From: Candidatus Omnitrophota bacterium
GTDB taxonomy: Bacteria > Omnitrophota > Gorgyraeia > Zapsychrales > JAKLDJ01
DNA: 64,000 bases
Direction of reading: 5' to 3'
Assembly: GCA_022703585.1 (NCBI GenBank)
Contig: JAKLDJ010000003.1
Location: 78,250 to 142,249 of the forward strand
Below, one piece after another: positions 2,569 to 43,511 of this stretch (positions are counted from its first letter, which is position 1; each line of letters begins with the position of its first letter). Position numbers and translations under genes: made by a program. The notes below the pieces were generated by a model, which was not told where the DNA came from, ran no database searches, and worked only from the letters and a program-made list of their open reading frames with translations.

Positions 2569-2598
2569 ATTCTATTCATTTCAAAGGATGGTATTTTA

Positions 2599-8685: not shown

Positions 8686-9938
8686 TTTACTGCAAGAGAT
8701 GTCTATATCCGGAAAATCACCCGCTCCATCTAATATTTGATAGCGAAGGGGTCTGTTCCGGGTGCCGCGTTCATGAGGAAAAAGATGTGCTGGATTGGCA
8801 TGAACGGGCGCAGAACCTGGGACGTATTTTTGATGATTACCGAAGCCGTTCGGGGAAGAATTATGACTGCATCATTCCGGTTAGCGGTGCCAGGGATTCC
8901 TATTTTATCGTTCATACGGTTAAAAACGTATTTAAAATGAATCCGTTACTGGTTTCCTATAATCAGCATTACAACACGGATATCGGCATACGGAATTTAG
9001 CGTACTTACGGATCAAGTTTAATTGTGATTATTACCAGTTGACCGTATCTCCGGAAATCGTCAAGAAGATCACGCGCGCGACCATGCGAAAACGGGGCAG
9101 TATCTACTGGCACTGCATTGCCGGCCAGACGGTTTACCCGGTGCAAATGGCGGTTCAATTTAAAATCCCCTTAATTGTCTGGGGGGCGCATCAGGGGGTC
9201 GACCAAGTCGGAATGTTCTCTCATTTGGATGAAGTTGAGATGACGAGGAAATACCGCAAAGAACATGACCTGATGGGGCTCGAGGCCGAGGACCTGGTTG
9301 ACGAATTCGATTTTATAGAAGAAAAAGATATGGCTCCGTTCGTTTACCCGGACGACAAGGAAATTGAGAAAGTCGGAGTGAGAGGGATCTACCTTAATAA
9401 TTACATACGGTGGGATTCAAAAAAACAGCATGAAGACATGATTCGGCTCTACGGATACGAAACCGCTTTGCAGACCAGGACATTTGATAATTATAACGAC
9501 ATCGACTCTTTTAATTATTCCGATGTCCACGACCATATCAAGTTTCTAAAATGGGGTTATGGCAAGGTCAATGACCATGTTGCCAGGGAGATTCGTCTTA
9601 AACGGATGACCGCGCAAGAAGGCGTAGAAAAGATCGATGCCTATTTATACCGGCCCCCTAAAAATCTTTCTAAATTCTTAGAATGGATCGGGATGACCGA
9701 AAGGGCATTTAATTTTGTGATCGACCAACACCGCAGTCCGAGCGCATGGAAGAGAAACGCGAGATGGGAATGGGAGTTAAAGTCGCGTATCACAAAAGAA
9801 CTAATCGATGATTCGTCTAGGACGGTCGCTCTAGACAAAAAAGAAACTTGCGACTTTGTTTTGACGTCTTCACGAAAACCGGGATATGTCGAGGATAAGT
9901 ATATCTTAATCGGGAAAGGTGCTGTAGGGAACGCTTAA
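8682..9938 (+). CDS. N-acetyl sugar amidotransferase, second paralog (WbuX/PseA family)
   Basis: N-terminus YCKRCLYPENHPLHLIFDSEGVCSGCRVHEE and PP-loop SGARDS are present. ATGA overlap with the hisF-like stop. Confidence 0.8.
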   Translation: MIYCKRCLYPENHPLHLIFDSEGVCSGCRVHEEKDVLDWHERAQNLGRIFDDYRSRSGKNYDCIIPVSGARDSYFIVHTVKNVFKMNPLLVSYNQHYNTDIGIRNLAYLRIKFNCDYYQLTVSPEIVKKITRATMRKRGSIYWHCIAGQTVYPVQMAVQFKIPLIVWGAHQGVDQVGMFSHLDEVEMTRKYRKEHDLMGLEAEDLVDEFDFIEEKDMAPFVYPDDKEIEKVGVRGIYLNNYIRWDSKKQHEDMIRLYGYETALQTRTFDNYNDIDSFNYSDVHDHIKFLKWGYGKVNDHVAREIRLKRMTAQEGVEKIDAYLYRPPKNLSKFLEWIGMTERAFNFVIDQHRSPSAWKRNARWEWELKSRITKELIDDSSRTVALDKKETCDFVLTSSRKPGYVEDKYILIGKGAVGNA

Positions 9939-12087: not shown

Positions 12088-13127
12088 CCGATGTTCCTTT
12101 TAAGAAGTATTCCAAATCGTCAGGTTTTTATACAAAAACGCATAAGGAATTTTTTACGGAAAATGAATCCCTTTTAGCCAAGATAGAAGAACACAATCGG
12201 ATTTACCGGGAGCAGCCGGTCCGGGAGTATTGTAAATTATGCCATGAAAAGCTGCCGACTCTTAAGGATCTCGTTTCGCATGATATTCCTTACTTTTTTT
12301 GTTCCAATTGCGGGCATTTCAACGGAGCCTACGAAGATACCAAGGAATTTGTAAAAAAGATTTATCTCGAAGACACCAATTATTCGGATCACTACGTGAA
12401 TGCTGAATTTGATTCGCGAACCAAGAATATTTATGTCCCTAAAGTAGATTTTCTCGCAGAGAATCTTCCTCCGGGTATCCGGCCAAGGGTTCTTGATATA
12501 GGTTGTGGCAGCGGCAATTTTGTATACGCCTGTTTACAAAGGGATATTGAAGCGGTGGGGATAGACTTTTCGGCCAAGGCCGTTGACTTTGGAAATCAAC
12601 AAATACGGCAACGATTAAATAAATCTCCGCTGACACTGGTTTCGGAAGAGACATTCTTTCAGTCTATTGTCGGGTCGGATGCCAGTGTCTTAAGCGCTAT
12701 CGGGGTCCTTGAGCATTTGCGCGAACCGGATAAGCTTTTTGATGCGTTTGAAAAGAGCCGGATGACCTATTTGTTTTATTCTGTGCCGATGTTCTCTGCT
12801 TCGGTGATTTTTGAGAATGCCTTTCCGGCAGTATTCCCCAGACAGCTCGGAGGGGACCACACGCATTTATTTACCGAATCTTCGGTCGAATGGATGCATA
12901 AAAACAAGAATTTGTGTTCGCTTGCGGAGTGGCGATTTGGGACGGGTGTTATGGATTTGTATAGAAGCCTTTTGATAACCCTCAAGAAGAACGGTGCATC
13001 GGACAAGCTTCTTAAAATCTTTGAAGAGGGGTTTGCCCAAAAGATTGATGCCTTACAGGCTGTTCTTGATAAGAATAACTTTTGCTCGGAAATCCATTGC
13101 CTGGTAAAGAAAGAAAGGATGTCATGA
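12084..13127 (+). CDS. class I SAM-dependent methyltransferase with N-terminal zinc ribbon
   Basis: CKLCHEK...CSNCGHF gives CxxC...CxxC, and motif I is VLDIGCGSGNF. GTG start overlaps the upstream stop; RBS AAGGAGG. Confidence 0.7.
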   Translation: MTDVPFKKYSKSSGFYTKTHKEFFTENESLLAKIEEHNRIYREQPVREYCKLCHEKLPTLKDLVSHDIPYFFCSNCGHFNGAYEDTKEFVKKIYLEDTNYSDHYVNAEFDSRTKNIYVPKVDFLAENLPPGIRPRVLDIGCGSGNFVYACLQRDIEAVGIDFSAKAVDFGNQQIRQRLNKSPLTLVSEETFFQSIVGSDASVLSAIGVLEHLREPDKLFDAFEKSRMTYLFYSVPMFSASVIFENAFPAVFPRQLGGDHTHLFTESSVEWMHKNKNLCSLAEWRFGTGVMDLYRSLLITLKKNGASDKLLKIFEEGFAQKIDALQAVLDKNNFCSEIHCLVKKERMS

Positions 13128-13414
13128 ATATCTTGAGCTATTTTCATATCGATATGTGGACGCTTTGGGGTCTCGTCTCCCAGGGCCTTTTTTTCTTAAG
13201 TTTTGTTGTCCAGTGGTACGAATCGGAAAAGAGAAAGACTTCTGTTATCCCGATGGAATTTTGGTATCTGCGCATCTTAGGGGCGTTGATGACCTTTATT
13301 TATGCCGTCGCGCGTCGGGATATCGTTTTTTTGGCATCGACGGTGCTGCAGATTATTATTTATTCACGCAATATCCATTTGATCAGTCTCAAGGCTCCCG
13401 CCGGAAAGGGGTAA
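13124..13414 (+). CDS. small 2-TM membrane protein, lipid-A-disaccharide-synthase N-terminal-like domain (GT2 accessory)
   Basis: About 96 aa with two hydrophobic helices, WYESEKRK between them and a YAV.RRD motif. ATGA overlap with the upstream gene. Lies directly upstream of a polyprenyl-P GT2. Confidence 0.55.
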   Translation: MNILSYFHIDMWTLWGLVSQGLFFLSFVVQWYESEKRKTSVIPMEFWYLRILGALMTFIYAVARRDIVFLASTVLQIIIYSRNIHLISLKAPAGKG

Positions 13415-13418
13415 GGCT

Positions 13419-14354
13419 ATGACCGTGCCGTTTAATCCAATCGAAATCTCGGTTGTCGTACCTGTTTATAACGAAGAAGGAAGCGTGGTGCATCTTTACA
13501 CGGAGATCGAGGCGGTTTTGCGGGCCATGGGCCTGACGTTTGAGATTATTTTTGTTGATGACGGCTCTACCGACGGCACGGCCGCGAAACTGAAAACCTT
13601 ACGGCTTTTAAGGGTAATTCGTTTGCGCAAGAATTACGGCCAATCCTGTGCCCTGGATGCCGGTGTCAAGGCAGCGCGCGGGAAATTTATCGTGACCCTA
13701 GACGGTGACGGCCAGAATGATCCTGCGGATATCCCTCTTTTATGGCGCACGATCCAGAATGGCTATAGCGTTGTCTGCGGGTGGCGTTTTAAACGGAAAG
13801 ATTCTTTCTTAAAACGCTTTATTTCCCTGGGGGCACGGTTTTTAAGACGCCGGTTAGTGGATGACGACATCCATGATGCGGGGTGTACACTACGCATATA
13901 CAGACGGGAATGCTTTGAGGATTTGGACCTTTATGGGGAGCTGCACAGAATGATCCCGGCCCTTTTAAAATGGAGAGGGTTTAAGATCACGGAGGTTAAG
14001 GTTAATCACCGGCCGCGAATAGCTGGATGCACAAAATACGGCTGGGACCGGGTGCTCAAGGGATTTTTAGACATGCTCTATGTCTGGTTTTGGCGTAAAT
14101 ATGCCTTTAGGCCTTTGCACTTGTTCGGGGCATTCGGAATTTTCTTCATGCTGTTCGGTAGCCTTCTGCTTTTGTTTTTAACAGGTCTTAAAATATTTTT
14201 AGGATATCAGCTTTCTAATAAAATATGGCCGTTGGTGGGATTCTTTTCTGTCTCGATCGGCGTCCAATTCTTGATGATGGGATTTTTGGCTGCGAACTTG
14301 GTGGATCAGAACCGAGCCCGTAAATATTCCGTGGAATCTATGTCGGGAGAATAA
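13419..14354 (+). CDS. GT2 polyprenyl-phosphate sugar synthase (DPM1/ArnC/GtrB-like) with C-terminal TM helices
   Basis: ISVVVPVYNEEGS...FVDDGSTDGT...LDGDGQNDP fits GT2 DXD architecture. The hydrophobic C-terminal 80 aa is typical of GtrB/ArnC. Confidence 0.8.
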   Translation: MTVPFNPIEISVVVPVYNEEGSVVHLYTEIEAVLRAMGLTFEIIFVDDGSTDGTAAKLKTLRLLRVIRLRKNYGQSCALDAGVKAARGKFIVTLDGDGQNDPADIPLLWRTIQNGYSVVCGWRFKRKDSFLKRFISLGARFLRRRLVDDDIHDAGCTLRIYRRECFEDLDLYGELHRMIPALLKWRGFKITEVKVNHRPRIAGCTKYGWDRVLKGFLDMLYVWFWRKYAFRPLHLFGAFGIFFMLFGSLLLLFLTGLKIFLGYQLSNKIWPLVGFFSVSIGVQFLMMGFLAANLVDQNRARKYSVESMSGE

Positions 14355-14382
14355 GTGAGTTCAAGGCAGTTCTCGTTATGAG

Positions 14383-14434
14383 GGCTGCCGGGGCTTGCAT
14401 TTCTTTTCCGCGGGAATAGCAGCAACGATTTTTT
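14383..14434 (+). terminator. candidate intrinsic terminator (imperfect GC hairpin followed by a T-run)
   Basis: GCTGCCGGGG...CCGCGGGAATAGCAGC can pair (GCTGC/GCAGC arms) and is followed by AACGATTTTTT. Lies in the 101-nt gap after the GT2 gene. Confidence 0.3.
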
Positions 14435-14455
14435 AAGGAAGGGGGTCATCGTTAT

Positions 14456-15205
14456 ATGGATTCATCGTCTGCTCATCTAGAGGAGCACTATACATCTCTC
14501 GGGAATTTAAAGTCTGATTTTAGAAATAAGAATCTTTACGAATTGATTAGTTCCTGCCTGGATAAAAAAACACTCCTGGATATCGGATGCGGGGCGGGCC
14601 ATTTCTTAAATATTGCCCACGAGAAAGGGTTCCAAGTTTCCGGAGTAGAGCCTGATCAAAAGCTCATAGATCTTTCTCGGAAATTATATCCCGGAAATCT
14701 TAATATTACGAATTGTCCCGCTGAGCAGATCGACACCATCCGGGGAAAATTTGACAACATTACGGTGATTGATGTGCTCGAGCACGTTGAAGATGATATG
14801 TCTGTTTTGAAAAAAATAAAAGGATTATTGGCAGAAGACGGCCGGTTAATTATTTTGGTTCCCTGTCATCCTCATCTTTACGGAAAGCGGGATAAGGCCA
14901 TGGGCCATTACCGCCGTTATTCAAAGAGCAATCTTGTTGATAAATTGGAAAAGAACGGATACCGGATCCTAAAACTGCGTTTTTGGAATATGCTCGGCTA
15001 TTTACCCTATTTAATTTCTGAAAAGGTATTGCAGCGCGAAATCAGTTCTTCCTTTCGCGAAAATAAGAGCGGCAGCCCGCTTCATAATGCGGTCAGCAAG
15101 GTATTGAATTTATGGTTTAAATATGCGGAAAATGCAGTCAACTTTGGTTTTGGTCTGAGCCTGATATGCGTGGTAGTCCCCAGAGAAACAAAGGAAGAAT
15201 ATTAA
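14456..15205 (+). CDS. class I SAM-dependent methyltransferase
   Basis: Motif I TLLDIGCGAGHFL, with acidic post-I and motif II/III spacing. RBS AAGGAAGGGGG. Confidence 0.75.
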   Translation: MDSSSAHLEEHYTSLGNLKSDFRNKNLYELISSCLDKKTLLDIGCGAGHFLNIAHEKGFQVSGVEPDQKLIDLSRKLYPGNLNITNCPAEQIDTIRGKFDNITVIDVLEHVEDDMSVLKKIKGLLAEDGRLIILVPCHPHLYGKRDKAMGHYRRYSKSNLVDKLEKNGYRILKLRFWNMLGYLPYLISEKVLQREISSSFRENKSGSPLHNAVSKVLNLWFKYAENAVNFGFGLSLICVVVPRETKEEY

Positions 15206-16540
15206 ATGCCCAAAATACTACTTATCAATCCTCCTTGCTCTGCTCTGTATTCAAAACTCAGAAGAATTTCTCCCATCTATCCCCCGCTGGGTTTGTTGTA
15301 TCTCGCGTCTTTCTTGGAGAAAAATAACGTTGACGTGGCTTTCTATGACGGCCTGGCAGAAGGCAGATCTGTATCTGATGTTGAAAAGATATTATCGGTA
15401 TCCGATGCCGAGATTGTCGGAATCACCTGCACCACGTCTACCTTAAATGAGGCTATTCAAATTGCAACCTACGCTAAACATTGGGGGAAAAGGACATTTC
15501 TCGGGGGCCCGCATGTCACCGCGCTGCCCAAATTGACTTTAGAAAAGCATCCTTGTTTTGATGTGGGTGTCATCGGAGAAGGAGAAATCACTCTCCGGGA
15601 ATTAATCGCAGGCAAGCCGTTAAATGAAATCGACGGTATTGTCTATCGCCACGACGGCGAAGTGGTCATGAATAAAGCAAGGGAGGCGATTGAGGACCTG
15701 TCCAGCTTACCGCATCCGGCCAGGCATCATTTGAAAAATCAGCTATACCAGCCCGGCATTAAGGAATACGCGCGTGCCAATAACTTCTTTACGCTGATTA
15801 CCGCGCGGGGGTGTCCCTTTCAATGTATCTTTTGTGCCTCAAAAGCGATTTGGGGCTGTCGTGTGCGAGAAAGGTCGCTTGAGGATATTTTCCTCGAGCT
15901 GGAAGAACTTAAGGGAATGGGCATGACCTATCTGAGAGTTCTTGATGACACATTCACGTTAAAAAAGAGCAGAGTGCGTGAATTCTGCAAATATATAAAG
16001 AATTATAATATCCACTGGAGTTGTAATGCGCGAGTGGACAGAATGGACTCTGAAATAATCCATATGCTAAAAGACAGCCATTGTGTTTTTGTCGAATACG
16101 GCATTGAAAGCGGCAATCAAAAGATATTGGATATCATGAAAAAAGGCATCACGCTCGAGCAAATCCGGCAAGCCGCGCGAGTGACTAAAGAGGCAGGAAT
16201 GCGATTCAACTGTTCCTTTATCGTCGGCAACATAGGAGAAACGTTAAAGACCGCCGAGGAAACGGTGCAGTTAGCCAAGGAATTGAATCCGGATTTTGCC
16301 CAGTTTAACATGCTGACGCCTTATCCCGGGACCGAAGTATATTCCATCTGTAAGGAAAAAGGATATTTGATCAAAGATTTTGAAGACTATCGAAACCCAA
16401 AATATCAGGATCCGGTGATTGCGCTTCCGGGCTTACCGGCCAAGGAGCTCAAGAAATTGCTTATGCATGCTTACCGCTATTTTTATTGGCGGCCGCAAGC
16501 TATTTTTAAATTGCTGTACCATACGATTTTCTTTAAGTAG
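15206..16540 (+). CDS. cobalamin-binding radical SAM enzyme (class B radical SAM, likely methyltransferase)
   Basis: The N-terminus is a B12-binding-like Rossmann domain (KILLINPP...LGLLYLASFL). Radical SAM cluster motif CPFQCIFC (CxxxCxxC). Confidence 0.85.
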   Translation: MPKILLINPPCSALYSKLRRISPIYPPLGLLYLASFLEKNNVDVAFYDGLAEGRSVSDVEKILSVSDAEIVGITCTTSTLNEAIQIATYAKHWGKRTFLGGPHVTALPKLTLEKHPCFDVGVIGEGEITLRELIAGKPLNEIDGIVYRHDGEVVMNKAREAIEDLSSLPHPARHHLKNQLYQPGIKEYARANNFFTLITARGCPFQCIFCASKAIWGCRVRERSLEDIFLELEELKGMGMTYLRVLDDTFTLKKSRVREFCKYIKNYNIHWSCNARVDRMDSEIIHMLKDSHCVFVEYGIESGNQKILDIMKKGITLEQIRQAARVTKEAGMRFNCSFIVGNIGETLKTAEETVQLAKELNPDFAQFNMLTPYPGTEVYSICKEKGYLIKDFEDYRNPKYQDPVIALPGLPAKELKKLLMHAYRYFYWRPQAIFKLLYHTIFFK

Positions 16541-16562
16541 AACGATTTTAGGGAAAGAGGAA

Positions 16563-18278
16563 ATGATGTCTAGAGAAGCGCAGGCGGTATTTACTGAAAA
16601 CAGAAAATATTTTGCAGGCATTATTTTGGTTTTGGCGATTTTTATTGCCGTGTGGGCCTGGGTAGTGGTGGCTACGGCACCATGGGGTGATGAGAACTTT
16701 CATCTGGCGGCAGCAGCAGGTCTTCATTATTCCGGGAAGGCCGATCTTTGGGATATTGATAAAAACAAAATTTCAGATCTCACCGATAATCAGGACTATA
16801 ATCGGGGTCAAATTATTACCCGCCCTACGGCATTTCTTATGAAGATTTCTCTTAATAACATGCTTTTATTTCATATCATTCCGCTTTTTTTCTCTCTTCT
16901 GACTCTTGGTTTCTGGGCATGGTATGCTGGTCGGCGCATGAAATTTGGGCTTGGTGCCGTGATGTTGTTATCAATATTTATTTTGGGGCAACCGATTTTT
17001 CTTGAAGAGGCGGCATATTTGAGGGCGTATTCGGCCCTGGGATTATTTATGAGTGTTGCGGTTATCGGATTATGGGAGGCACGTGAGGGTTTTATCCGGA
17101 AGCGATGGGCGGCTGTTATGTGGGGAGGGCTAGCGGTAATGATGGCTATCGTGGTCCCGCAATTAGACCATTGGCAGTCGCAGCATATTCTGGCGATTAT
17201 TTTTTCCGCTCTTTTATTGCACGATAAAGTCTGGCAACGGACTCAAAAGTTTCTTTCTAATCCCCGGAAGGTTGCCTTCGTGGCGGTGCCCCTGTTGTTA
17301 TTGGCGCCTTTCGCGGTGATTGTCATTGATCAAATGATGGTCGGGATAAAGATGGGCAGCCGTCCGATGCCTTTGTCATTTGTCACCTATTGGGATAACA
17401 TTGCCGGCCTTTTGCGTTTTATGTTGGCGTTAAATGTCTGCCTTATTGGTTTTAAATGGTTGGCTCAGGGGCTGGTTAAAAGATCTTTTTGGTCGTGGCT
17501 TTATGTTTCCGGTATCTTGTCCGGGATTTTCCTGGCTTTGTTTCTGCCTCTAAGCCACATCTTTTATTCCCGCTTCTTTTATATCCATGTCCTTTTGGGG
17601 AGTATCGGTTTTTTGGGGCTCTTTTTAGAAAAAAATCCACAACCCGGGCTCAGGAGAGCGATGATAGCCGGTTATCTGGTAATCGGTATCTGTTTTTCGG
17701 GAATCAATTTTTATTATGATCGCGACAATAGACAAGACGGCGTGGTATGGCTCAAGGAAAATTTGAAGAAAAACGACATTCTTTTCGCATTCTCTCCTCA
17801 ATATATGTTTAATAACGGCGAAGAACTTATAGGGCGTACTTATTTTATCGGTAGATCGGCGGACCTTGAGAAAGTTGAGGAAATTATCCGGATTGCCCAA
17901 AACCCGGGAACCGGCCGCATTTTCTTTTTTTGCGCCGATTTCTACCAATTCAAGAATCGGCTTTATCATTGGACGACGGGCGGGGACAGGATTTTTAAAT
18001 ACGGCGACGAGGTAAATTATATTTATTATGCTATCCCCTCAGAGAGCGTATTAAGAAACCCAAGGGGGTTTGACATCAGGATTTACGATGCTGCTGTTTT
18101 AGCGGAGGGCTTAAAGACGCTTCGGGAAGAGGGTTTTGCCGAGCGGATTCCTCCGGTCAGTATGCATAAGAAGTTAATCAAGGGAGCCTTTGGCGCGTTC
18201 AATTTGCCGACAAAAAGGGAAGATATTCTCGAGATCCCTTTGGTCAAATGGTTCTTTAGTTTTTTTTCCCGGCAATAA
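16563..18278 (+). CDS. GT-C fold membrane glycosyltransferase (ArnT/PMT-like), putative
   Basis: More than 10 predicted TM helices. The first loop contains the WGDENFH acidic motif typical of ArnT/PMT polyprenyl-P-sugar-dependent transferases. I chose the internal ATG at 16563, preceded by RBS GGGAAAGAGGAA. Confidence 0.55.
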   Translation: MMSREAQAVFTENRKYFAGIILVLAIFIAVWAWVVVATAPWGDENFHLAAAAGLHYSGKADLWDIDKNKISDLTDNQDYNRGQIITRPTAFLMKISLNNMLLFHIIPLFFSLLTLGFWAWYAGRRMKFGLGAVMLLSIFILGQPIFLEEAAYLRAYSALGLFMSVAVIGLWEAREGFIRKRWAAVMWGGLAVMMAIVVPQLDHWQSQHILAIIFSALLLHDKVWQRTQKFLSNPRKVAFVAVPLLLLAPFAVIVIDQMMVGIKMGSRPMPLSFVTYWDNIAGLLRFMLALNVCLIGFKWLAQGLVKRSFWSWLYVSGILSGIFLALFLPLSHIFYSRFFYIHVLLGSIGFLGLFLEKNPQPGLRRAMIAGYLVIGICFSGINFYYDRDNRQDGVVWLKENLKKNDILFAFSPQYMFNNGEELIGRTYFIGRSADLEKVEEIIRIAQNPGTGRIFFFCADFYQFKNRLYHWTTGGDRIFKYGDEVNYIYYAIPSESVLRNPRGFDIRIYDAAVLAEGLKTLREEGFAERIPPVSMHKKLIKGAFGAFNLPTKREDILEIPLVKWFFSFFSRQ

Positions 18279-18311
18279 GAATATTTATCAAAACATCAAA
18301 GGGAGCGATAG

Positions 18312-20117
18312 ATGCTGATTTTGGGAATTAGTTTTGGCCATGCCGCGGCGGCGGCCTTGTTAAGGGACGGACAAATTATTGCCGCCATGGAAGAAGAGAA
18401 GATCTCTCGCATTAAAGGGCACGTGACTTTTCCGCTATTGGCGATCGGATATATGTACAAAAAATTCAATATATCGGCAAAAGATATTGATATTTTAGCG
18501 ATCGGATGCGAAGACCTGGTGGAGTTTGCTTACGGGCACCGGGCACTTAATAAGTTTTTTGGGCATACCTCTTTCGTTGATAAAATTTCCGGGGCTATTC
18601 AAGACAAGATCAAGACGATTTTTCCTTCGTTTGCGAGTGCTCCCGGTTTACGAAAGAAATTTTATCGCTATTTGGAAGAAATAGGTTTTCCCGAAGAAAA
18701 AGTCCGCTTGGTTAATCATCATCTGGCGCATGCGGTCAGCGCTTACTACACTTCTCCTTGGGATGATGCGGCTGTTATTACCAATGACGGAAAAGGAGAC
18801 GGACTTTGCGGCGCCTTCTTTGAAGCCAGGGGCAATGAGATTTTTTGCCGGGACCGCATCAAGGACTTAAACTCGGTAGGTCAATTTTACCAGTCGGTTA
18901 CAAAATTCCTGGGTTTTAAAATTAACCGTCATGAGGGGAAAATCACAGGCCTGGCGGCTTATGGGAATTTTTCCAGAACATTTCCTCTGATGAATGAAAT
19001 ATATAAATTCGAAAATGGCAAACTCCGGAATCTGTTTCACGACAACAAAGATCTCCGGGAAAACCCCATCCGCTATTTTCATGACGTCGTCAAAAATAAA
19101 GATTTTATTGCTGATGATTATGTCAGAAGCCTGGATGGGGGTTTAAGGCATTTTGCTATTGGCTACCAATTGTATCTCAATTTTTTTCGAGAGAGGATGG
19201 CGGGTTTTTCTCCTGCGGATATGGCGGCCGGCATCCAGGAGATTGCCGAGCAGGCGATTGTTGCCTACGCCAAAGCGCAGTTTGCTATCTATCCGCACCA
19301 GCATGTTTGTTTAGCCGGCGGTGTCTTTGCTAATGTTAAAATCAATCAAAGAATCCGGGAAATCGCCGGAGTCAAAAATGTTTATATTCAGCCGGCTATG
19401 GAAGATTCCGGGACGGCCCTGGGGGCGGCGATCCATATCTGGATGAATCATAAGGGAAAGATGGCAAAACCGACTTTTAATGTTTACTTAGGGCCGGAAT
19501 ATACCGATGCGCAGATAGAAGAGACTCTTAGAAAATATAATTTGAATTACAAAAAGGTCAATGAACCCGAAGAGATTTTGGGGAGGCTTATTTTTGAGGG
19601 CAAGATCATAGGAAGGTTTAATGGGGCGCTGGAATGGGGGCCGCGAGCCTTGGGGAACCGTTCCATTTTAGCGCGGCCGATCGATAAAACAATCAACGAT
19701 ACTTTAAATGAGCGTTTAAAACGTACGGAATTTATGCCGTTTGCGCCTTCCATGCTTGATGAAGACGCAAAAGATTTTCTTATCGGCTATTCACCGGACC
19801 ATATTTCGGCAAAATATATGACCATCACCTACAATGTTAATCCCGCTCGGATTGAACAAATTCAGGCGGCGGTCCATGTGGACGGGACGGCGAGGCCGCA
19901 GGTTGTTTTTGAGAAAGACAACCCTTCTTTTCACAAGATCATTAAGGCGTACAAGAAACATTCCGGCTTCGGCGTTGTTATCAATACGAGTTTTAACATG
20001 CACGAAGAGCCGATTGTCAATACTCCCGAGGATGCTATTCGGGCTTTTCTGGTGGGGGCTGTGGATGTGTTGAGCCTGGGAAATTTCTTGGTCGAGGAAA
20101 GGCCGGCGCGCGGGTAG
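18312..20117 (+). CDS. carbamoyltransferase (NodU/CmcH/TobZ family)
   Basis: N-terminus ILGISFGHAAAAALLRDGQIIAA...EEKISRIKGH and the VNHHLAHA metal-binding HxH motif match the Carbam_trans N-terminal domain. The C-terminal YrdC-like half is present. Confidence 0.85.
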   Translation: MLILGISFGHAAAAALLRDGQIIAAMEEEKISRIKGHVTFPLLAIGYMYKKFNISAKDIDILAIGCEDLVEFAYGHRALNKFFGHTSFVDKISGAIQDKIKTIFPSFASAPGLRKKFYRYLEEIGFPEEKVRLVNHHLAHAVSAYYTSPWDDAAVITNDGKGDGLCGAFFEARGNEIFCRDRIKDLNSVGQFYQSVTKFLGFKINRHEGKITGLAAYGNFSRTFPLMNEIYKFENGKLRNLFHDNKDLRENPIRYFHDVVKNKDFIADDYVRSLDGGLRHFAIGYQLYLNFFRERMAGFSPADMAAGIQEIAEQAIVAYAKAQFAIYPHQHVCLAGGVFANVKINQRIREIAGVKNVYIQPAMEDSGTALGAAIHIWMNHKGKMAKPTFNVYLGPEYTDAQIEETLRKYNLNYKKVNEPEEILGRLIFEGKIIGRFNGALEWGPRALGNRSILARPIDKTINDTLNERLKRTEFMPFAPSMLDEDAKDFLIGYSPDHISAKYMTITYNVNPARIEQIQAAVHVDGTARPQVVFEKDNPSFHKIIKAYKKHSGFGVVINTSFNMHEEPIVNTPEDAIRAFLVGAVDVLSLGNFLVEERPARG

Positions 20118-20149
20118 TTTTATTTTAAAACATCATAGAAGGAATACAT

Positions 20150-21640
20150 ATGAAGAAATTCAGAGTTTTGTTTTTATATCCTAACGGAAAACTGATGAAT
20201 CCTCCTCCGATTGCGATCGGGATATTTACGGCATTATTAAGGGAGAATGGTTTTGAGGTGGATTTGTTTGACACCACGCTTTATTCCGAACCCGGCAGCG
20301 TAGGATCGGATGATGCCAAGAAGGAAAATCTGCAGGTCAGGCCTTTTGATTACGGTTCGCGGGGCGTTAAGTTAAAAGAACGGCCTATCGCGCCGGATCT
20401 GCTTAAAAAAATTGAGGAATTCCGTCCTGATCTAATAGCGATATCAATTCTAGAATGCACCTATTCGGCGGCGCGCGCCATGCTGCAGGCTATTGAGAAG
20501 ACAGACATTCCCGTTATCGCCGGAGGGGTTTTTCCGACCTTCGCGGCCGAGAAAATGCTTATGCATAAAAATGTCCGTATGGTGTGCCGGGGCGAAGGAG
20601 AAGGGGCGTTGGTGGAGGTATGCCAGCGGATGGCGGCAGGCAAAGATTGTGATGACGTCGAGAATCTTTGTGTCAAAAGAAACGGGCGGCTGGTCCAGAA
20701 CCGGATCAGAAAACCCGTTGATATTAACAGCCTTCCGGTGTCAGATTTTAGTCTTTTTGAAGAGGCAAGGTTTTTCCGCCCTATGGCGGGAAAGGTTTAC
20801 AAAACCATTCCCATTGAGACAAACCGGGGATGTCCCTACACATGTTCTTTTTGTAACTCACCGTCCACGTCCGAAATGTATAGGGAGAATGGCTGCAAAT
20901 TCTTTAGGACAAAGAGCATGACGGCGATTCAGCGAGAGCTACGGCATCTTAAAAAGCAATGGGATGCCGAATATGTGTATTTCAGCTCGGACAATTTTCT
21001 GGTGAACTCGGATGCCGAATTTAATCAGTTCCTTGAAATCTACAAGGAGATTAATCTTCCCTTTTGGGTACAATCCCGCCCGGAAACGATCACTGAATAT
21101 CGGGCGAAGAAACTGAAAGAGATCGGCTGTCACAGGATTTCTCTGGGATTAGAGCATGGCAATGACGAGTTCAGGAAGAAGGTCCTTAAGAAGAAATTCG
21201 ATAATGAGGTAATGATCAGGGCCTCAAAAATCCTTGCCGATGCCGGGATACCGCTTACGGTCAATAATATGATCGGGTTTCCCGATGAAACCAGAGAGCT
21301 TATTTTTGACACCATAGAACTTAACCGCCAGCTGGTTACCGACACGATGAATTGCGCGGTCTTTGCTCCGTTTCACGGGACACCGCTGCAGAAGTTGTGC
21401 GTCGAACGCGGATACGTATCGGAAGACACGATTTTCGGTTCCATTAATGTCGACATACCCCTTAACATGCCCCAGCTGACCCAAGAGGACATCCGGGGGA
21501 TACGCCGGACATTTTCGCTGTATGTGCGTTTGCCTAAGAGTAATTGGCCGCAGATTCGAAGAGCCGAGAAATTCGACGAGGAAGGAAACCGCATTTTCGC
21601 CGAACTGAGCAAAATGTACCAGGAAAAATATTTTAAGTAG
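20150..21640 (+). CDS. cobalamin-binding radical SAM enzyme (second paralog)
   Basis: N-terminal B12-binding-like domain (RVLFLYPNG...IAIGIFTALL) and radical SAM motif CPYTCSFC. Confidence 0.85.
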   Translation: MKKFRVLFLYPNGKLMNPPPIAIGIFTALLRENGFEVDLFDTTLYSEPGSVGSDDAKKENLQVRPFDYGSRGVKLKERPIAPDLLKKIEEFRPDLIAISILECTYSAARAMLQAIEKTDIPVIAGGVFPTFAAEKMLMHKNVRMVCRGEGEGALVEVCQRMAAGKDCDDVENLCVKRNGRLVQNRIRKPVDINSLPVSDFSLFEEARFFRPMAGKVYKTIPIETNRGCPYTCSFCNSPSTSEMYRENGCKFFRTKSMTAIQRELRHLKKQWDAEYVYFSSDNFLVNSDAEFNQFLEIYKEINLPFWVQSRPETITEYRAKKLKEIGCHRISLGLEHGNDEFRKKVLKKKFDNEVMIRASKILADAGIPLTVNNMIGFPDETRELIFDTIELNRQLVTDTMNCAVFAPFHGTPLQKLCVERGYVSEDTIFGSINVDIPLNMPQLTQEDIRGIRRTFSLYVRLPKSNWPQIRRAEKFDEEGNRIFAELSKMYQEKYFK

Positions 21641-21662
21641 AAAACCCGCGCAGGGGAGATCA

Positions 21663-23480
21663 ATGGTTTCCGGAATTTTTTATGTTGTGATCGTTCAAAA
21701 TAAAAGACGGTTGCGAGCGTATTTGAGAAAGCAGGCCAAAGCCGTAACCGAAAAACGCTCATGCTTGATTCTATGTGAGCCGTCCGTGGATGAGCTGGAT
21801 TTATTAAAGCAGGCGCAATGCGAAATCGTTTCCAAGCCGTCTTTGATGCGGTATCGGGACCAATTCCTTAGGGAGTATATTGATTTGATAGGCATGTTAA
21901 GCCGTGAACTAGATAGCTTGATGTGGTGGGCGACCGATGCCTCGTCAAAGAATCGGCACATGTCGACCCTGCCGGCTTTGCTGGAACAATTTTTATTGGC
22001 CATGGAGACCGCTAAGCGCAAAGACGGTGATTGTCTGGTCATTTATAATGTCCCGTGGCCGGTTATTTCATCTCTAGCGAAATCATTAAGCGCCTGCGAT
22101 ATTCGTACAGTAGTCTTGAGCGATATTTACCAGTGGCATGCGGAATTGTTTTTTGGCTTTGTCCGGCGTGTCGGATCGGTCTTATGGAATATTGTCCGGA
22201 CTTCGCTTAACAAATGTTACGCCCATTTTTATTTCCCAAGATTACCCAAGATCGATGAACAATGCTATGTAGCGAAAACGTTTATTTATGAACATTTATT
22301 TACAAAAGACGGTCGCTATCAGGATATTTTCTTCGGCTCCTTGCTGGATTTTTTGCAGAAAAAAAAGAAGCTCCTCGTGCTTGCCTATGTCTGGGATCAT
22401 CACCGCCGTGTTATGAAGAAGATGAAAGAATATCGGGATTTGACCATTATTCCGGTGGAATGCTTTCTGTCCTTTTGGAGTATTGTTAAAGATTCGCTTA
22501 AGGTGCTTTTTTATAAGGCACGTACTAAAAGCAAGATTTTGTTTTTCGGTTTTGACGTAAGCGATATGATCAACCAGGAATTTACCCGGACGTTTTCTAA
22601 GATTCAACCCATCCAGCTTCTTCATTATTCACTGACCCGGTGTTTTTTAAAGCATTATTCCGTCGAGACATTTCTGATGACGTATGAAAATAATCCCTGG
22701 GAGAAGATGTGCATCCTGGCGATGAGGCGGGATTCGCCCAAAACGCAGCTGTTGACCTATCAGCACGTGGTCGTTCCTCAGGCAACGGCAAATATGTTTA
22801 CCAGCCGCCTGGAAGAGGATGTGCTGCCTCAAGCGGACCGAATCTTAACCGCGGGCCGGATTCCCAAAGAGACGATCGAAAAGTACCGTACCTCGCAAAA
22901 GGTGAAAGTAGAGGCTGCCTGTGCGCTGCGGTTTGAATATCTGCGGAATATTCCGATAAGTCCGCGCCGCAAAGCCGGAAGGATCGTTGTCGGACTAGAA
23001 GGCGTTCCGGCGATTTGTCAATTGGTCAACTATCTCTTTGAGCAATTAGGAGATAACCGCCGTTTTGAGGTATTGATCCGCACTCATCCCACATTCCCCT
23101 GGGAATCTTTTTCTTCAAAAATAAAATACGATATTAAATCTTACCCGCATTTTAAGGTTTCGCACGGCACCTCGGCCAAGGCCGATATTGATTGGGCGGA
23201 TCTGATGATTTATTGGGGCAGCACGGTGGCTTTGGAGGCTTTAAGCGCGGGGAAACCGGTTATTCACTTTGATATGGCAACGGTGCTGGATTTTGATCCG
23301 TTGTCCGATTGTCCTTATTTGCGGCGCACTGTTTCTAGTCAGGATTCGCTGGTTGTCGCAATAGACGAAATTTATAGCTGGGATGATACCGCCTTTGCGT
23401 CTCAACAACGGCAGGCCCGTCAATACATTGAAGAATATTTTTACCCGGTGACGGAAGAAAATCTTACAAAGTTTATCTAA
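21663..23480 (+). CDS. hypothetical 605-aa protein, possible GT-B-like transferase
   Basis: I can name no family. The C-terminal GSTVALEALSAGKPVIHFD resembles the GT-B nucleotide-binding half. RBS GGGGAG. Confidence 0.5.
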   Translation: MVSGIFYVVIVQNKRRLRAYLRKQAKAVTEKRSCLILCEPSVDELDLLKQAQCEIVSKPSLMRYRDQFLREYIDLIGMLSRELDSLMWWATDASSKNRHMSTLPALLEQFLLAMETAKRKDGDCLVIYNVPWPVISSLAKSLSACDIRTVVLSDIYQWHAELFFGFVRRVGSVLWNIVRTSLNKCYAHFYFPRLPKIDEQCYVAKTFIYEHLFTKDGRYQDIFFGSLLDFLQKKKKLLVLAYVWDHHRRVMKKMKEYRDLTIIPVECFLSFWSIVKDSLKVLFYKARTKSKILFFGFDVSDMINQEFTRTFSKIQPIQLLHYSLTRCFLKHYSVETFLMTYENNPWEKMCILAMRRDSPKTQLLTYQHVVVPQATANMFTSRLEEDVLPQADRILTAGRIPKETIEKYRTSQKVKVEAACALRFEYLRNIPISPRRKAGRIVVGLEGVPAICQLVNYLFEQLGDNRRFEVLIRTHPTFPWESFSSKIKYDIKSYPHFKVSHGTSAKADIDWADLMIYWGSTVALEALSAGKPVIHFDMATVLDFDPLSDCPYLRRTVSSQDSLVVAIDEIYSWDDTAFASQQRQARQYIEEYFYPVTEENLTKFI

Positions 23481-23512
23481 CAGTTATGTAGCGAATAGAA
23501 GGGGGATGTTTC

Positions 23513-24448
23513 GTGATTCCTAAAAATAATGATATGCGCTTTGAGGTAACAACAAAATGCAATTACAATTGCATTATTTGTCCGCATCATAAGCTGAACC
23601 GCAATCTTGAAATTATGAGCTTTGCCTTGTTTAAGAAGATCTTTGACAAGATTAATGCTGAAACGGCACAATACAACACGATGACTTTCTCCGGAATGGG
23701 GGAAGCGCTGCTGGACCCGACATTGGACAAGAAACTCGAATACGCAAAAAAGCGCAAGAAGGATCTGGCGGTATTGCTTTTGACCAACGGCTCGCTTCTA
23801 ACGCTTAAAAAATTTAAGCGGTTGGAGAGCCTGGGGCTATCATCCGTGCGGATCAGTTTTTACGGAGACAACCCGGAAAGCTATACCAAGGTGCATGGTA
23901 TCACAAATAAGAATATGTTTTATAATGTGCGGGATAATTTGCTGGCCATATCGAAAGCCAAACGAAAAACAAAACTGATCCTTACTTTTAATTTGGTCAA
24001 GGGCGGCAATGAAGGCGCTGTGGAAAACTGGATAAAGCTTTGGGAGGATCGGGTGGACCTCACGGAAGTCTGGCGTCCGCACAACTGGGTTGACGCCAAG
24101 AAATACCGGAAAGTTCAGCGAAAGAAGCTGAAGACCTGCGGCCGGCCGTTTGAAGGGCCTCTGCAAATCCAGGCTGATGGAACGGTCAATATGTGCTGTT
24201 TTGATTTTGACGGGAAATTGACCTTAGGGGACCTCAAGACGCAGAGCCTTAAAGAAATATTTTCGTCACCGTTGTTCAAGAAAATCGTCGCCTGCCACTC
24301 CAGCGGTAATTTTAGCGGTAGCGGGCTGATTTGCACGCACTGCGACCAGCGCAACGCCGATAAAACCGGTGTCATGATTTACAATTCTCATTTTGACGTT
24401 AATGAGCGAGTCAAGATGCTTTCGACGACGTATAGAAAAGTTATTTAG
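23513..24448 (+). CDS. radical SAM protein with C-terminal SPASM/twitch-like Cys-rich domain
   Basis: CNYNCIICPH (CxxxCxxC) near the N-terminus. C-terminal cysteines NMCCFDFDG...CHSSG...CTHCDQ are present. GTG start with RBS AGAAGGGGGA. Confidence 0.8.
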   Translation: MIPKNNDMRFEVTTKCNYNCIICPHHKLNRNLEIMSFALFKKIFDKINAETAQYNTMTFSGMGEALLDPTLDKKLEYAKKRKKDLAVLLLTNGSLLTLKKFKRLESLGLSSVRISFYGDNPESYTKVHGITNKNMFYNVRDNLLAISKAKRKTKLILTFNLVKGGNEGAVENWIKLWEDRVDLTEVWRPHNWVDAKKYRKVQRKKLKTCGRPFEGPLQIQADGTVNMCCFDFDGKLTLGDLKTQSLKEIFSSPLFKKIVACHSSGNFSGSGLICTHCDQRNADKTGVMIYNSHFDVNERVKMLSTTYRKVI

Positions 24449-24458
24449 GAGAACTTGA

Positions 24459-25454
24459 ATGGTCAGCTCCGGAGCTGTCAGTCAGGATATCGTTTCGGCC
24501 CTCTACAAGAATTACTATGAAAGCAGCGGGGATAATCAGGCGTTTATTTCCTCACATTGGCAGTATTATTTGCCACAGGTCCAAGCCCTGGCAAAAGAAG
24601 GGAGAATCGTTCCTTTGCGCGGAGATTCTTTTGGAGATTTTCAGAATACGTCTTTGTCCCGCCGATTATTTTCGATGGCCACCATCGGGAGTTATTTATT
24701 AACTTTTAAGGATCGATGGACGATTCTCAAGTTAATAAAGGTGACGGGCAAGGTTTTTAAAAGGCTGGGATTCCATCTGACCTATGACGGTTTTCGGCAA
24801 ATCTGTTCGTTAGCGTTAATTGCGAAACATATTCCTAATACAAAGAAAAAGATTACGGTTCTTTGTATAGGGGATGGTTACGGACTTTTGTCCGATCTTA
24901 TTAAAGAAATTTATCCTCATGCGAAGATTTGCTTGCTTGACCTGGGGAAAATTCTCACTTTTCAGGCCCATTTTTGCCAGCAGGCTCACCCCGAGAGCAA
25001 GCATGTTCTGAAATCCCGATTTGCTCCGTTGGCGGATGAGAGGGATGCGGATTTTACTTATTGCCCGGCCGAAGATTTATCTTTATTAGACACCTATTCA
25101 TTTGATTTGGTTGTCAATATTGCTTCGATGCAGGAAATGAATGAAGACACGATCAGGGCCTATTTTAGTTTCCTGCGCGGTCATATGAAGAAAGATAATC
25201 TTTTTTATTGTTGCAACCGTATTGAGAAGCAAATGCCCGGCGGGGAGGCCTCGCGGATTCTTTCTTATCCCTGGGACGGGAGGGATGTTCATATCGTTGA
25301 CGAGATCTGTCCATGGTTTAGATATTTCTTCTCTAGCTGGACCTTGGCTCGTGGTCCTAAGGTCATGGGTTGGCGGATCCCTTTTATTAATTATTTCGAC
25401 GGAGATATCCATCATCGATTGACGCGCATGCATATCTCTGGCAAGGCTTGCTAG
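24459..25454 (+). CDS. hypothetical protein, possibly a Rossmann-fold methyltransferase-like protein
   Basis: VLCIGDGYGLL glycine-rich loop followed by an acidic residue (CLLDLG). No other motif I can name. RBS AGGAGAA. Confidence 0.4.
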   Translation: MVSSGAVSQDIVSALYKNYYESSGDNQAFISSHWQYYLPQVQALAKEGRIVPLRGDSFGDFQNTSLSRRLFSMATIGSYLLTFKDRWTILKLIKVTGKVFKRLGFHLTYDGFRQICSLALIAKHIPNTKKKITVLCIGDGYGLLSDLIKEIYPHAKICLLDLGKILTFQAHFCQQAHPESKHVLKSRFAPLADERDADFTYCPAEDLSLLDTYSFDLVVNIASMQEMNEDTIRAYFSFLRGHMKKDNLFYCCNRIEKQMPGGEASRILSYPWDGRDVHIVDEICPWFRYFFSSWTLARGPKVMGWRIPFINYFDGDIHHRLTRMHISGKAC

Positions 25455-25494: not shown

Positions 25495-26631
25495 ATGACT
25501 TATAATAATTATTCTCCCAAAGTCACTGTTTTAATGACCGTGTATAATGCCGGGTTGTATCTGGCGCATTCTATTAAAAGCGTTTTAAGGCAGACGTACA
25601 AAGATTTTGAACTGCTCATTATTGATGATTGTAGCTCCGACGGCTCTTTTCAAGTCGCCAGTTCTTTTAATGACGACCGCATAAAGGTCCATCGTAATTC
25701 CAGCAATATGGGGCAAACGAAATCTTTGAATGTCGGCTTAAAGTTAGCAGCAGCTCCGTATGTTGCGCGTATTGATGCCGATGATATGGTTTTTAGCCGA
25801 TGGTTGCAGGAACAGGTTGCTTTTATCGAGGATCATCCCGAATTGAGCGTGGCGAGTACCCAGGCCGTTATTATTGACGAGAACCATAACCTGCAGAAAA
25901 CATTACGTTCTTCTGTTGCGCAGGAGGAAATTCTCTTAAAATCGCTTATCCGTTCCCCCATTAACCATGTGGGATCCATTATGCGACGGAATATCATTCT
26001 GGAAAACGGCGGATATGATGAAAATTTTAAGATTGCGGCAGATTATGACCTCTGGTCTCGCCTGATCGAACGCGGGTATAAAATTAGCAGCACAAAGGAA
26101 ACGTTGGTGGCAATCAGGGTGCATAGCCAATCGGTAAGCATCTTAGAAAGGGGAGGGCGTGACCGCAGTGAATTGCTGCAAATTATGCATAAAAATATAA
26201 AAACCCTGGCAAATGCACAGTTTGATGCGCATGATGCCCAGTTGTTGTGGATGCTTATTTACGATGTTGATTCTTTAGCAGATCATGATTTCCGAGAAGC
26301 GAAAGAAGTTATAGAAAATATTTATGGAAACTTAAAAACTTCTTTGCCTATATCGCTTTCGTATCGGACGAGGGCATTACAGCGACAGATGCAGGTCATT
26401 TATGCCAAACGCGTCTTTGCGCTGATAAAGAAAAATGATGTTTTGCGCGCGCGCTTACTGATGTATGATTATTTCGATACTTACGGATGGGCCAATATAT
26501 TTCTGTTATTTCTTATTTTGACTTTTACCGGGAAGTCGATGATTGCTTTATTGCCGCGGTTGTACGACGGCATTGTGAGATTAAACACACGTCTTAAGTT
26601 TGAGAAGAAACTTTTGACAATTTTTGCATGA
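25495..26631 (+). CDS. GT2 family glycosyltransferase
   Basis: VTVLMTVYNAGLYL...YKDFELLIIDDCSSDGS and DXD at RIDADDM are present. Confidence 0.8.
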   Translation: MTYNNYSPKVTVLMTVYNAGLYLAHSIKSVLRQTYKDFELLIIDDCSSDGSFQVASSFNDDRIKVHRNSSNMGQTKSLNVGLKLAAAPYVARIDADDMVFSRWLQEQVAFIEDHPELSVASTQAVIIDENHNLQKTLRSSVAQEEILLKSLIRSPINHVGSIMRRNIILENGGYDENFKIAADYDLWSRLIERGYKISSTKETLVAIRVHSQSVSILERGGRDRSELLQIMHKNIKTLANAQFDAHDAQLLWMLIYDVDSLADHDFREAKEVIENIYGNLKTSLPISLSYRTRALQRQMQVIYAKRVFALIKKNDVLRARLLMYDYFDTYGWANIFLLFLILTFTGKSMIALLPRLYDGIVRLNTRLKFEKKLLTIFA

Positions 26632-26638
26632 GGGCGAT

Positions 26639-43458: not shown

Positions 43459-43511
43459 TATTATTTTAGCCGATTGAGTTTTGCCTGCATATGAGATACA
43501 GCGCTGAAATG

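Follow-up and report, generated by a model that had tools for sequence, protein, structure and literature searches.

Class B radical S-adenosylmethionine (SAM) enzymes constitute a large family, most members of which are without known function, and the sugar-modifying ones that have been characterised stem, to our knowledge, from antibiotic or hopanoid pathways. Among them, Fom3, MoeK5 and HpnJ fall together in the sequence-similarity network of a review; MoeK5 is a methylase of a carbon centre on the way to moenomycin A, and HpnJ contracts the glucosamine ring of bacteriohopanetetrol glucosamine, a hopanoid (PMC9204698). Tailoring of a sugar on a lipid carrier has a precedent in the Arn pathway, where ArnD deformylates undecaprenyl-phosphate-linked Ara4FN (Und-P-Ara4FN) ahead of flipping and ArnT transfer (PMC4402001). 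Here, we analyse a 64,000-nucleotide stretch of DNA from a Candidatus Omnitrophota bacterium (GenBank assembly GCA_022703585.1, contig JAKLDJ010000003.1, positions 78,250 to 142,249 of the forward strand), referred to below as the window and numbered from its first nucleotide. It carries, between 14456 and 25454, an island of eight genes that includes two radical SAM enzymes with B12-binding domains, called rSAM1 and rSAM2.

We read the region, extended in the 5′ direction to 13124, as a two-part glycan branching-and-tailoring segment in a chromosomal surface-polysaccharide locus, and assign this reading a probability of roughly 60%. Part A (13124-18278) would be a carrier pathway of the Arn/Gtr type and Part B (18312-25454) a set of cytoplasmic tailoring steps. 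The enzyme families are all known; what is new is the arrangement, in which a radical SAM gene and a methyltransferase gene interrupt an Arn/Gtr-type module whose GT-C membrane glycosyltransferase comes from an orphan family. A more specific proposal, that the rSAM1 clade of B12-domain radical SAM enzymes has polyprenyl-phosphate-borne sugars as substrates in such a module, with a GT-C family that was previously unrecognised, is possible and is put forward here tentatively. A literature search for cobalamin or radical SAM enzymes in surface polysaccharide, glycosyltransferase or undecaprenyl phosphate contexts, covering open-access papers only and hence weak as evidence, did not reveal any description of such an arrangement. 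A genome paper on Omnitrophota reports variable polysaccharide cassettes, and radical SAM and GT1 domains together in giant proteins, which are not analysed there.

The proposed carrier module and its radical SAM gene

The preliminary description of this DNA had treated the island as a unit starting at 14456, but the functional unit starts at 13124, and the island is not one cassette: its genes do not travel together in other genomes (see below). The first gene (13124..13414, + strand), a called gene in the source contig, encodes a small membrane protein of 96 residues with a LAB_N domain (PF07578, 3.6e-23). It is followed by GT2_a (13419..14354, + strand), a glycosyltransferase of the ArnC/GtrB/DPMS type with 311 residues and two C-terminal transmembrane helices. 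In phmmer searches against the PDB, GT2_a matches ArnC at 1e-35 (residues 9-292), GtrB at 4e-28 and DPMS at 2e-19. Because of this similarity, and because the ArnC and GtrB alignments span nearly the whole protein, GT2_a is assigned as a polyprenyl-phosphate glycosyltransferase; its score of 148 bits against the NCBIfam ArnC model is under the cut-off.

The third component of the module is a GT-C membrane glycosyltransferase of 571 residues, called GTC571 (16563..18278, + strand), with about 9-10 transmembrane helices. The GT-C fold that had been suggested for it is confirmed: the polytopic N-terminal part adopts this fold, its first extracytoplasmic loop carries an acidic motif, and a soluble C-terminal domain of about 185 residues follows. 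On the basis of structure prediction, the fold is assigned as ArnT-like. GTC571 represents a very rare orphan family for which there is no Pfam model. A word-indexed homologue search with it returned the self match only, the family profile found nothing among the PDB sequences, and a metagenome profile search with a narrow GT-C alignment gave only two loci.

One metagenomic contig, L091, is central to the argument. Here, a LAB_N gene, a GT2 gene whose product is 57% identical to GT2_a, and a GT-C gene (35% identical product) are contiguous, with the LAB_N orthologue directly 5′ of the GT2 orthologue. In the window, on the other hand, two genes lie between GT2_a and the GT-C, namely those for a class I SAM-dependent methyltransferase (14456..15205, + strand, 249 residues; Methyltransf_23 1e-18, Methyltransf_11 7e-15; no NCBIfam equivalog match) and for rSAM1 (15206..16540, + strand, 444 residues). 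Since the three genes are contiguous in L091, the methyltransferase and rSAM1 genes constitute an insertion into a conserved three-gene carrier module. The spacing is tight, with rSAM1 starting at the base after the methyltransferase stop codon and ending 22 bp 5′ of the GT-C start. An ArnC/GtrB-family GT2 adjoining a GT-C is thus present, in L091 as well, while no GtrA or ArnE/F flippase was found in the module.

We also note that the L091 GT2 (1229-1972) has 247 residues, without the C-terminal transmembrane hairpin of GT2_a, and that it overlaps the GT-C open reading frame (ORF; 1884-3581) by about 90 bp. These features may reflect a frameshift or an assembly error, L091 being a contig of low coverage.

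Both rSAM1 and rSAM2 (20150..21640, + strand, 496 residues) have the domain composition of class B enzymes. The B12-binding domain (PF02310) is matched with 75.9 and 54.9 bits, respectively (3e-21 and 1e-14; cut-off 32.1 bits), and the Radical_SAM domain (PF04055) with 87.7 and 87.1 bits (1e-24 and 2e-24); the cluster motifs are C203PFQCIFC and C228PYTCSFC. The best NCBIfam match of both is HpnJ, with 243 bits for rSAM1 and 103 bits for rSAM2 against a cut-off of 577.6, and the BchE scores are 191 and 87 bits against 481. The preliminary description had named membership of this kind of family, unrelated to sugars, as an outcome that would tell against it; with these scores the two enzymes are not HpnJ or BchE equivalogs, and HpnJ is in any case an enzyme with a sugar substrate. 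Among solved structures, AprD4 is the nearest to each of them (3.7e-31 for rSAM1 and 5e-14 for rSAM2); the NCBIfam AprD4 model gives 129 bits, where 500 would be required. Against TIGR04295 (B12_rSAM_oligo), a family that we take to be tied to oligosaccharide gene cassettes, the scores are 98 and 54 bits with a cut-off of 400, so that neither enzyme is a member.

None of the nearest characterised relatives is a methylase: HpnJ is a ring-contracting enzyme, BchE a cyclase and AprD4 a diol dehydratase. Since the nearest relatives modify sugars and several of them are non-methylases, C-methylation is one possible outcome and not a prediction; methylases and non-methylases of this kind are not distinguished by any sequence motif. 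The radical C-H chemistry of rSAM1 could be C-methylation, deoxygenation or rearrangement.

In both parts of the segment, the domain and fold identities, the gene order, the synteny and the fusion protein described below are observations; the substrates, the on-carrier timing, the flippase role and the kind of radical chemistry are inferred. In the pathway that we propose for Part A, the ArnC-like GT2_a would transfer a sugar from a nucleotide sugar to undecaprenyl phosphate at the cytoplasmic face of the membrane. The class I methyltransferase and rSAM1 would then alter the sugar on the lipid carrier, or alternatively just before loading. The LAB_N protein would fill the flippase position, and on the periplasmic side the GT-C would transfer the finished sugar to the growing glycan.

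Relatives of rSAM1 and their neighbourhoods

The rSAM1 protein is found with 100% identity in another metagenome-assembled genome (MAG) of Candidatus Omnitrophota (GCA_035390605.1). Apart from that, only about 15 proteins have 44-60% identity to it. Glycan genes are present in all six of the close-orthologue loci that were examined. The rSAM1 orthologue is accompanied by a GT2, DegT, a GT28 and further radical SAM enzymes in L002; by three PMT-type GT-Cs, a second B12-domain radical SAM enzyme, methyltransferases and a GT2_a homologue in L003/L004; by a GT4, a GT2_a homologue and a fusion protein in L005/L006, where L006 is a duplicate contig; by an epimerase in L093; by three tandem B12-domain radical SAM genes, two methyltransferases and a GT4 in L094; and by Wzx, a methyltransferase, an acetyltransferase and DegT in L095. 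A class I methyltransferase is close to the orthologue in L003/L004, L094 and L095. Half of the six loci (L002, L003 and L005, and also the duplicate L006) have a GT2_a homologue at a distance of 172-2284 bp from the rSAM1 orthologue. By a rough estimate, well under 1% of randomly chosen genes should have an ArnC-type GT2 at a distance of 2.5 kb or less.

The fusion protein in L005 (1897-5700) is encoded by one stop-free ORF of 1267 residues with the domain order GT2, B12-binding, Radical_SAM, GT1. Its gene adjoins both the rSAM1 orthologue, which is 59-60% identical to rSAM1, and the GT2_a homologue.

A wider rSAM1 family, with 32-40% identity, was obtained from a profile search of genome contigs as 80 listed loci; no close rSAM1 orthologue was among the matches listed. 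Of the 80 loci listed, 38 have one or more homologues of the glycan genes found in the window, and 26 have 2-8 B12-domain radical SAM genes. In at least seven loci, from different phyla, a GT2_a homologue lies on the same strand less than 400 bp away. Some Omnitrophota loci have 3-5 B12-domain radical SAM genes beside WbaP, Wzy, RmlA or RmlB. A Sumerlaeota locus (L052) combines a GT2, an overlapping B12-domain radical SAM gene and a full-length carbamoyltransferase, and in an Omnitrophota locus (L055) a 41% identical homologue of rSAM2 stands among four more B12-domain radical SAM genes, a GT2 and an RmlB-like gene. Enzymes of this kind are thus common where Omnitrophota and other uncultured anaerobes encode glycan synthesis, and for these lineages the earlier statement that the enzyme set is untypical of O-antigen or capsule loci does not hold, in view of the 38 of 80 listed loci with glycan homologues and the Omnitrophota loci with several such enzymes.

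Two observations on individual loci can be added. Within about 16-21 kb, 5-8 paralogous B12-domain radical SAM genes are found in L044 (an unclassified bacterial MAG), in L060 and L068 (Bathyarchaeota MAGs) and in L055. Another Omnitrophota locus, L089, is a NeuB-type nonulosonic-acid locus with two B12-domain radical SAM genes and a homologue of the 605-residue glycosyltransferase of Part B, together with ATP-grasp, PIG-L, AsnB-like and PFTS_polysacc genes; it is a second case of radical SAM enzymes beside sugar-acid pathways.

A role in surface-sugar tailoring, as suggested in the preliminary description, is thus supported by the locus context, by the six orthologue loci and by the fusion protein, while the C-methylation suggested along with it is not, the nearest relatives being non-methylases. 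The same role could, however, be fulfilled in a different manner, with the radical SAM enzymes and the methyltransferase acting on soluble nucleotide sugars or on a repeat unit linked to undecaprenyl diphosphate (Und-PP), and with the gene position reflecting operon packing. Surface-glycan loci are mosaics in which the gene order is often unlike the reaction order, and the genes of Part B are individually scattered in other genomes. Moreover, components of nucleotide-sugar and repeat-unit pathways, namely DegT aminotransferases, epimerases and Wzx, are also among the neighbours of the close rSAM1 orthologues, and the GT2-radical SAM-GT1 fusion has a GT1/GT4 domain that is typical of cytoplasmic Und-PP-glycan assembly. 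What speaks for the carrier is that an ArnC-type GT2 adjoins rSAM1-family genes in at least ten independent loci, and that the methyltransferase, rSAM1 and GT-C genes are separated by only 0 and 22 bp. We consider the soluble or Und-PP-linked substrates to be a serious, though doubtful, alternative.

A second alternative is that the B12-domain enzymes, and perhaps also the SPASM enzyme of Part B, modify lipids, such as the polyprenyl carrier or membrane-spanning lipids, in the manner of the archaeal Hgm, GrsA/B and Tes. The listed relatives with 32-40% identity to rSAM1 are mostly archaeal or from candidate phyla. Hgm, a B12-domain radical SAM methylase of glycerol dialkyl glycerol tetraethers, is 31% identical to MoeK5, and Omnitrophota have Hbs homologues. 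The top PDB match of the SPASM protein is the tetraether synthase Tes (1.7e-8), and the lipid model TIGR04072 for B12-domain radical SAM enzymes gives 105 bits. However, every lipid-family score is far under its cut-off and no lipid-synthesis genes turned up in Pfam scans of the window ORFs, whereas glycan genes accompany all six close orthologues and a fusion to GT2 and GT1 exists. Lipid modification is therefore judged to be improbable.

Part B and the surrounding locus

We now consider the genes that follow the carrier module. All eight ORFs of the island are confirmed at their positions between 14456 and 25454, co-directional on the + strand, with short or no gaps as had been described; the intergenic distances are 0, 22, 33, 32, 22, 32 and 10 bp, using the gene-caller start at 16563 for the membrane GT-C gene. 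The motifs quoted in the preliminary description (CPFQCIFC, CPYTCSFC, CNYNCIIC, HHLAHA and the C-terminal Cys cluster) are all present, and Pfam bears out the domain calls for the two B12-domain radical SAM enzymes, the SPASM radical SAM enzyme, the carbamoyltransferase and the class I methyltransferase. The domain matches of these five enzymes range from 1e-11 to 1e-59, and chance is therefore not an issue.

The first gene of Part B (18312..20117, + strand) encodes an O-carbamoyltransferase of the TobZ/NodU/NovN/GdmN type with 601 residues. It consists of a Kae1-like N-terminal domain with the HxxxH motif (Carbam_trans_N, 2e-44, 153 bits; H136HLAHA) and a YrdC-like C-terminal domain (Carbam_trans_C, 4e-59, 199 bits). 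Its PDB matches are 7xb6 (1e-71), NovN (3e-64) and TobZ (1e-62, residues 131-595), and with 129 bits against a cut-off of 1000 it is not a NodU equivalog. The SPASM/twitch radical SAM enzyme (23513..24448, + strand, GTG start, 311 residues) has Radical_SAM (2e-14) and SPASM (6e-11) domains, the latter matched by PF13186 with 43 bits (cut-off 21.5) over residues 217-278, with C-terminal cysteines at positions 209, 228, 229, 261, 274 and 277. In the PDB, it matches Tes, as given above, BtrN (8e-8, collinear, residues 9-117) and DesII (3e-5). Its CX3CX2C motif, C16NYNCIIC, begins at residue 16, which leaves no space for an N-terminal peptide-recognition domain.

Two proteins of 605 and 331 residues had been regarded as unclassifiable, but both can be classified. 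The former (21663..23480, + strand) has the fold of a GT-B glycosyltransferase and, judging by its gene context, is probably specific for a sugar acid activated with cytidine monophosphate (CMP). In its family, HpcH aldolase and CTP_transf_3 genes are neighbours in four of four loci, mostly together with SIS and SDR genes; its matches to TIGR04396 and BFO_1060_trans are weak and below the cut-off. The latter (24459..25454, + strand) is a putative sugar O-methyltransferase of the NanM family, matching TIGR04371 over residues 29-253 with 77.4 bits against a cut-off of 44.

Part B would thus act in the cytoplasm. The TobZ/NodU-type enzyme is expected to O-carbamoylate a sugar hydroxyl via carbamoyl-AMP, rSAM2 and the BtrN-sized SPASM/twitch enzyme to carry out further radical steps, and the NanM-like enzyme to O-methylate. 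The GT-B enzyme would attach a CMP-activated nonulosonic acid provided by the pseudaminic acid (Pse) genes on the 5′ side.

Homologues of the carbamoyltransferase, rSAM2, the GT-B enzyme, the SPASM enzyme and the NanM-type methyltransferase do not recur jointly in the other genomes examined. This scattering of the Part B genes is in keeping with the mosaic composition of loci for surface glycans and speaks against a natural-product cluster that is mobile. It could still be envisaged that the eight genes form a self-contained cassette for a secondary metabolite, either aminoglycoside-like or a moenomycin-like phosphoglycolipid, that is embedded in the glycan locus by chance. The closest PDB relatives of four enzymes do come from antibiotic pathways (AprD4, TobZ/NovN/GdmN, BtrN and DesII), and moenomycin biosynthesis pairs the B12-domain radical SAM methylase MoeK5 with a NodU-type carbamoyltransferase, MoeM5. 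On the other hand, the scanned window ORFs gave no Pfam match to scaffold enzymes (DHQ_synthase/2-deoxy-scyllo-inosose synthase, prenyltransferase, polyketide synthase or nonribosomal peptide synthetase) or to integrases, transposases and other mobile-element genes. No regulator or resistance genes were found with the island either, the GC content is even (0.44-0.475), and the island runs without a break, and in the same direction, into the glycan genes on either side. We have thus rejected both the aminoglycoside-cluster and the mobile-cassette interpretations, the latter of which had been named at the outset as a possible objection, on the grounds of the missing scaffold and mobile genes, the even GC content and the lack of joint recurrence; a self-contained cassette is very improbable. 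A scan for promoters and terminators inside the island gave nothing informative.

Finally, maturation of a ribosomally synthesised and post-translationally modified peptide, in which many B12-domain radical SAM C-methyltransferases and SPASM enzymes take part and which weak NCBIfam matches (ApyD, rSAM_ocin_1, AlbA and PqqE) and the ABC exporter in the same locus might suggest, was rejected, its probability being close to nil, because the gaps of 0-33 bp are too small for a precursor gene and the SPASM protein has no peptide-recognition domain, to which it can be added that the scores are far under the cut-offs and that all neighbours are carbohydrate enzymes.

It is fair to state the points that weigh against our reading of the region as a carrier pathway followed by cytoplasmic tailoring. 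The insertion argument relies on L091, a single short contig (5.7 kb), and a radical SAM gene could lie outside it. LAB_N was found in the window and L091 only and in none of the rSAM1-family loci; we propose the LAB_N protein as a putative partner at the flippase position on the basis of gene position. Only about half of the wider-family loci listed show glycan genes, and many are archaeal. Neither rSAM1 nor rSAM2 reaches any NCBIfam cut-off, and their use of B12 is unproven because the closest solved relative, AprD4, works without cobalamin. The substrates of all the enzymes are inferred, and the acceptor of the GT-C might be O-antigen, core/lipid A, capsule or protein. For Part B, the order of action and the targets are guesses, as the genes do not recur together.

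The locus in which the segment is embedded makes up the first ca. 54 kb of the window and is mostly co-directional. On the 5′ side of the island are a HepA/MsbA/PglK-type ABC exporter, PseI/NeuB, GNAT, PseF, two WbuX genes, HisH/HisF-like genes and methyltransferases. On the 3′ side, GT2s, a Wzy-like protein, RmlA/B-like genes, a GT4, an acyltransferase and two methyltransferase-GT2 fusions are followed by WecG, WbaP, two Wzy_C proteins and GMD/GFS, and then by the housekeeping genes pgk, tpi and opp. The island had been placed between WbaP/Wzy-type genes; it does lie within the glycan locus, but WbaP is 21 kb away on the 3′ side and the genes directly 5′ are those for pseudaminic acid.

The exporter (709-2568) may serve as flippase; no Wzx of the Polysacc_synt type was detected in the locus. 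Between 2599 and 9938, the NeuB/PseI, GNAT and PseF genes of the pseudaminic acid pathway are followed by a pair of WbuX-type N-acetyl-sugar amidotransferases. PseF scores 293 bits in NCBIfam, above the equivalog cut-off of 205.7. As listed, the GNAT and PseF ORFs (3662-4955) overlap by 185 bp. Because residue 64 is the first of the PseF domain, however, PseF probably starts near 4270 in reality, and the overlap results from the way in which ORFs are listed. The two WbuX paralogues (6065-7198 and 8682-9938) flank the HisH/HisF-like genes, and this twin set suggests that either two sugars or two positions receive an acetamidino-type modification. The gene that separates WbuX from a methyltransferase encodes a soluble protein of 714 residues (9943-12087) that has no Pfam or NCBIfam match, LpxB being matched at chance level (E 0.29).

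Further downstream, three proteins have Wzy_C domains (26624-28621, weak, with 24 bits and below the cut-off; 48556-49866; 51881-53269). The two fusions of a class I methyltransferase and a GT2 (34883-36280 and 39184-40875) enclose two polytopic membrane proteins of 387 and 559 residues without family assignment. The only reverse-strand block of the locus (40894-45590, - strand) encodes an MBOAT acyltransferase, a 356-residue protein with one transmembrane helix and a 692-residue protein that matches no family and has about ten transmembrane helices; the block may serve in glycan O-acylation.

Implications and comparison with known systems

The organism is uncultured, and the glycan and its chemistry are predicted here from genes. 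The window, with the fusion protein and the loci of up to eight paralogues among the support, suggests a place in surface-glycan assembly for many class B radical SAM enzymes that are as yet uncharacterised. If modification on the carrier is correct, radical C-H chemistry would join the known routes of O-antigen and capsule diversification, and functions would be obtained for the orphan GT-C family and for LAB_N proteins. Polyprenyl-phosphate sugars would be a new substrate class for radical SAM enzymes with B12-binding domains, and there would be a general, overlooked route in Omnitrophota and other uncultured anaerobes to C-modified surface sugars that standard glycan chemistry has not catalogued. 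The GT2, the methyltransferase, the radical SAM enzyme and the GT-C form a compact unit for experiments.

It is instructive to compare the segment with the systems to which its enzymes are related. The analogy to aminoglycosides made in the preliminary description is a loose one. AprD4 is the nearest structure, TobZ aligns with the carbamoyltransferase and the SPASM protein is collinear with BtrN over its N-terminal half, but the likeness to the enzymes of these pathways (GenK/GenD1, AprD4, TobZ and BtrN) is at the superfamily level, and AprD4 is a dehydratase and not a methylase. Aminoglycoside clusters need a 2-deoxy-scyllo-inosose synthase of the DHQ_synthase family, whereas the window lacks a match to such an aminocyclitol scaffold enzyme and the setting is a polymer locus of the Wzy/WbaP type.

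HpnJ, the top-scoring characterised family for both B12-domain enzymes, has a lipid-attached glucosamine as its substrate. It differs in that rSAM1 and rSAM2 are far below its cut-off, that there are no hopanoid genes in the window, and that HpnJ contracts a ring and does not methylate.

The moenomycin pathway shares more features: in it, a saccharide linked to a lipid phosphate is handled by glycosyltransferases along with a carbamoyltransferase of the NodU/TobZ type and a radical SAM enzyme with a B12-binding domain. The target of MoeK5 is a lipid-linked sugar, MoeM5 is the carbamoyltransferase, and tailoring takes place on a lipid-linked intermediate. The pathway differs in that it belongs to an antibiotic cluster of actinomycetes, which brings along scaffold genes for a prenyl-phosphoglycerate, of which there are none in the window, and rSAM1 and rSAM2 are tied to MoeK5 only through its co-clustering with HpnJ.

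In the Arn (ArnC-ArnD-ArnE/F-ArnT) and Gtr (GtrA-GtrB-GtrC) systems, finally, we find the same combination of an ArnC/GtrB-type GT2, a small membrane protein at the flippase position and an ArnT-like GT-C. The position of GtrA or ArnE/F is taken here by LAB_N, and the GT-C is from an orphan family. Where ArnD tailors the sugar on the carrier, the window has a class I methyltransferase and a B12-domain radical SAM enzyme instead, and no deformylase. As analogues, the Arn/Gtr carrier pathway and moenomycin-type tailoring fit the segment better than the aminoglycoside pathways do.

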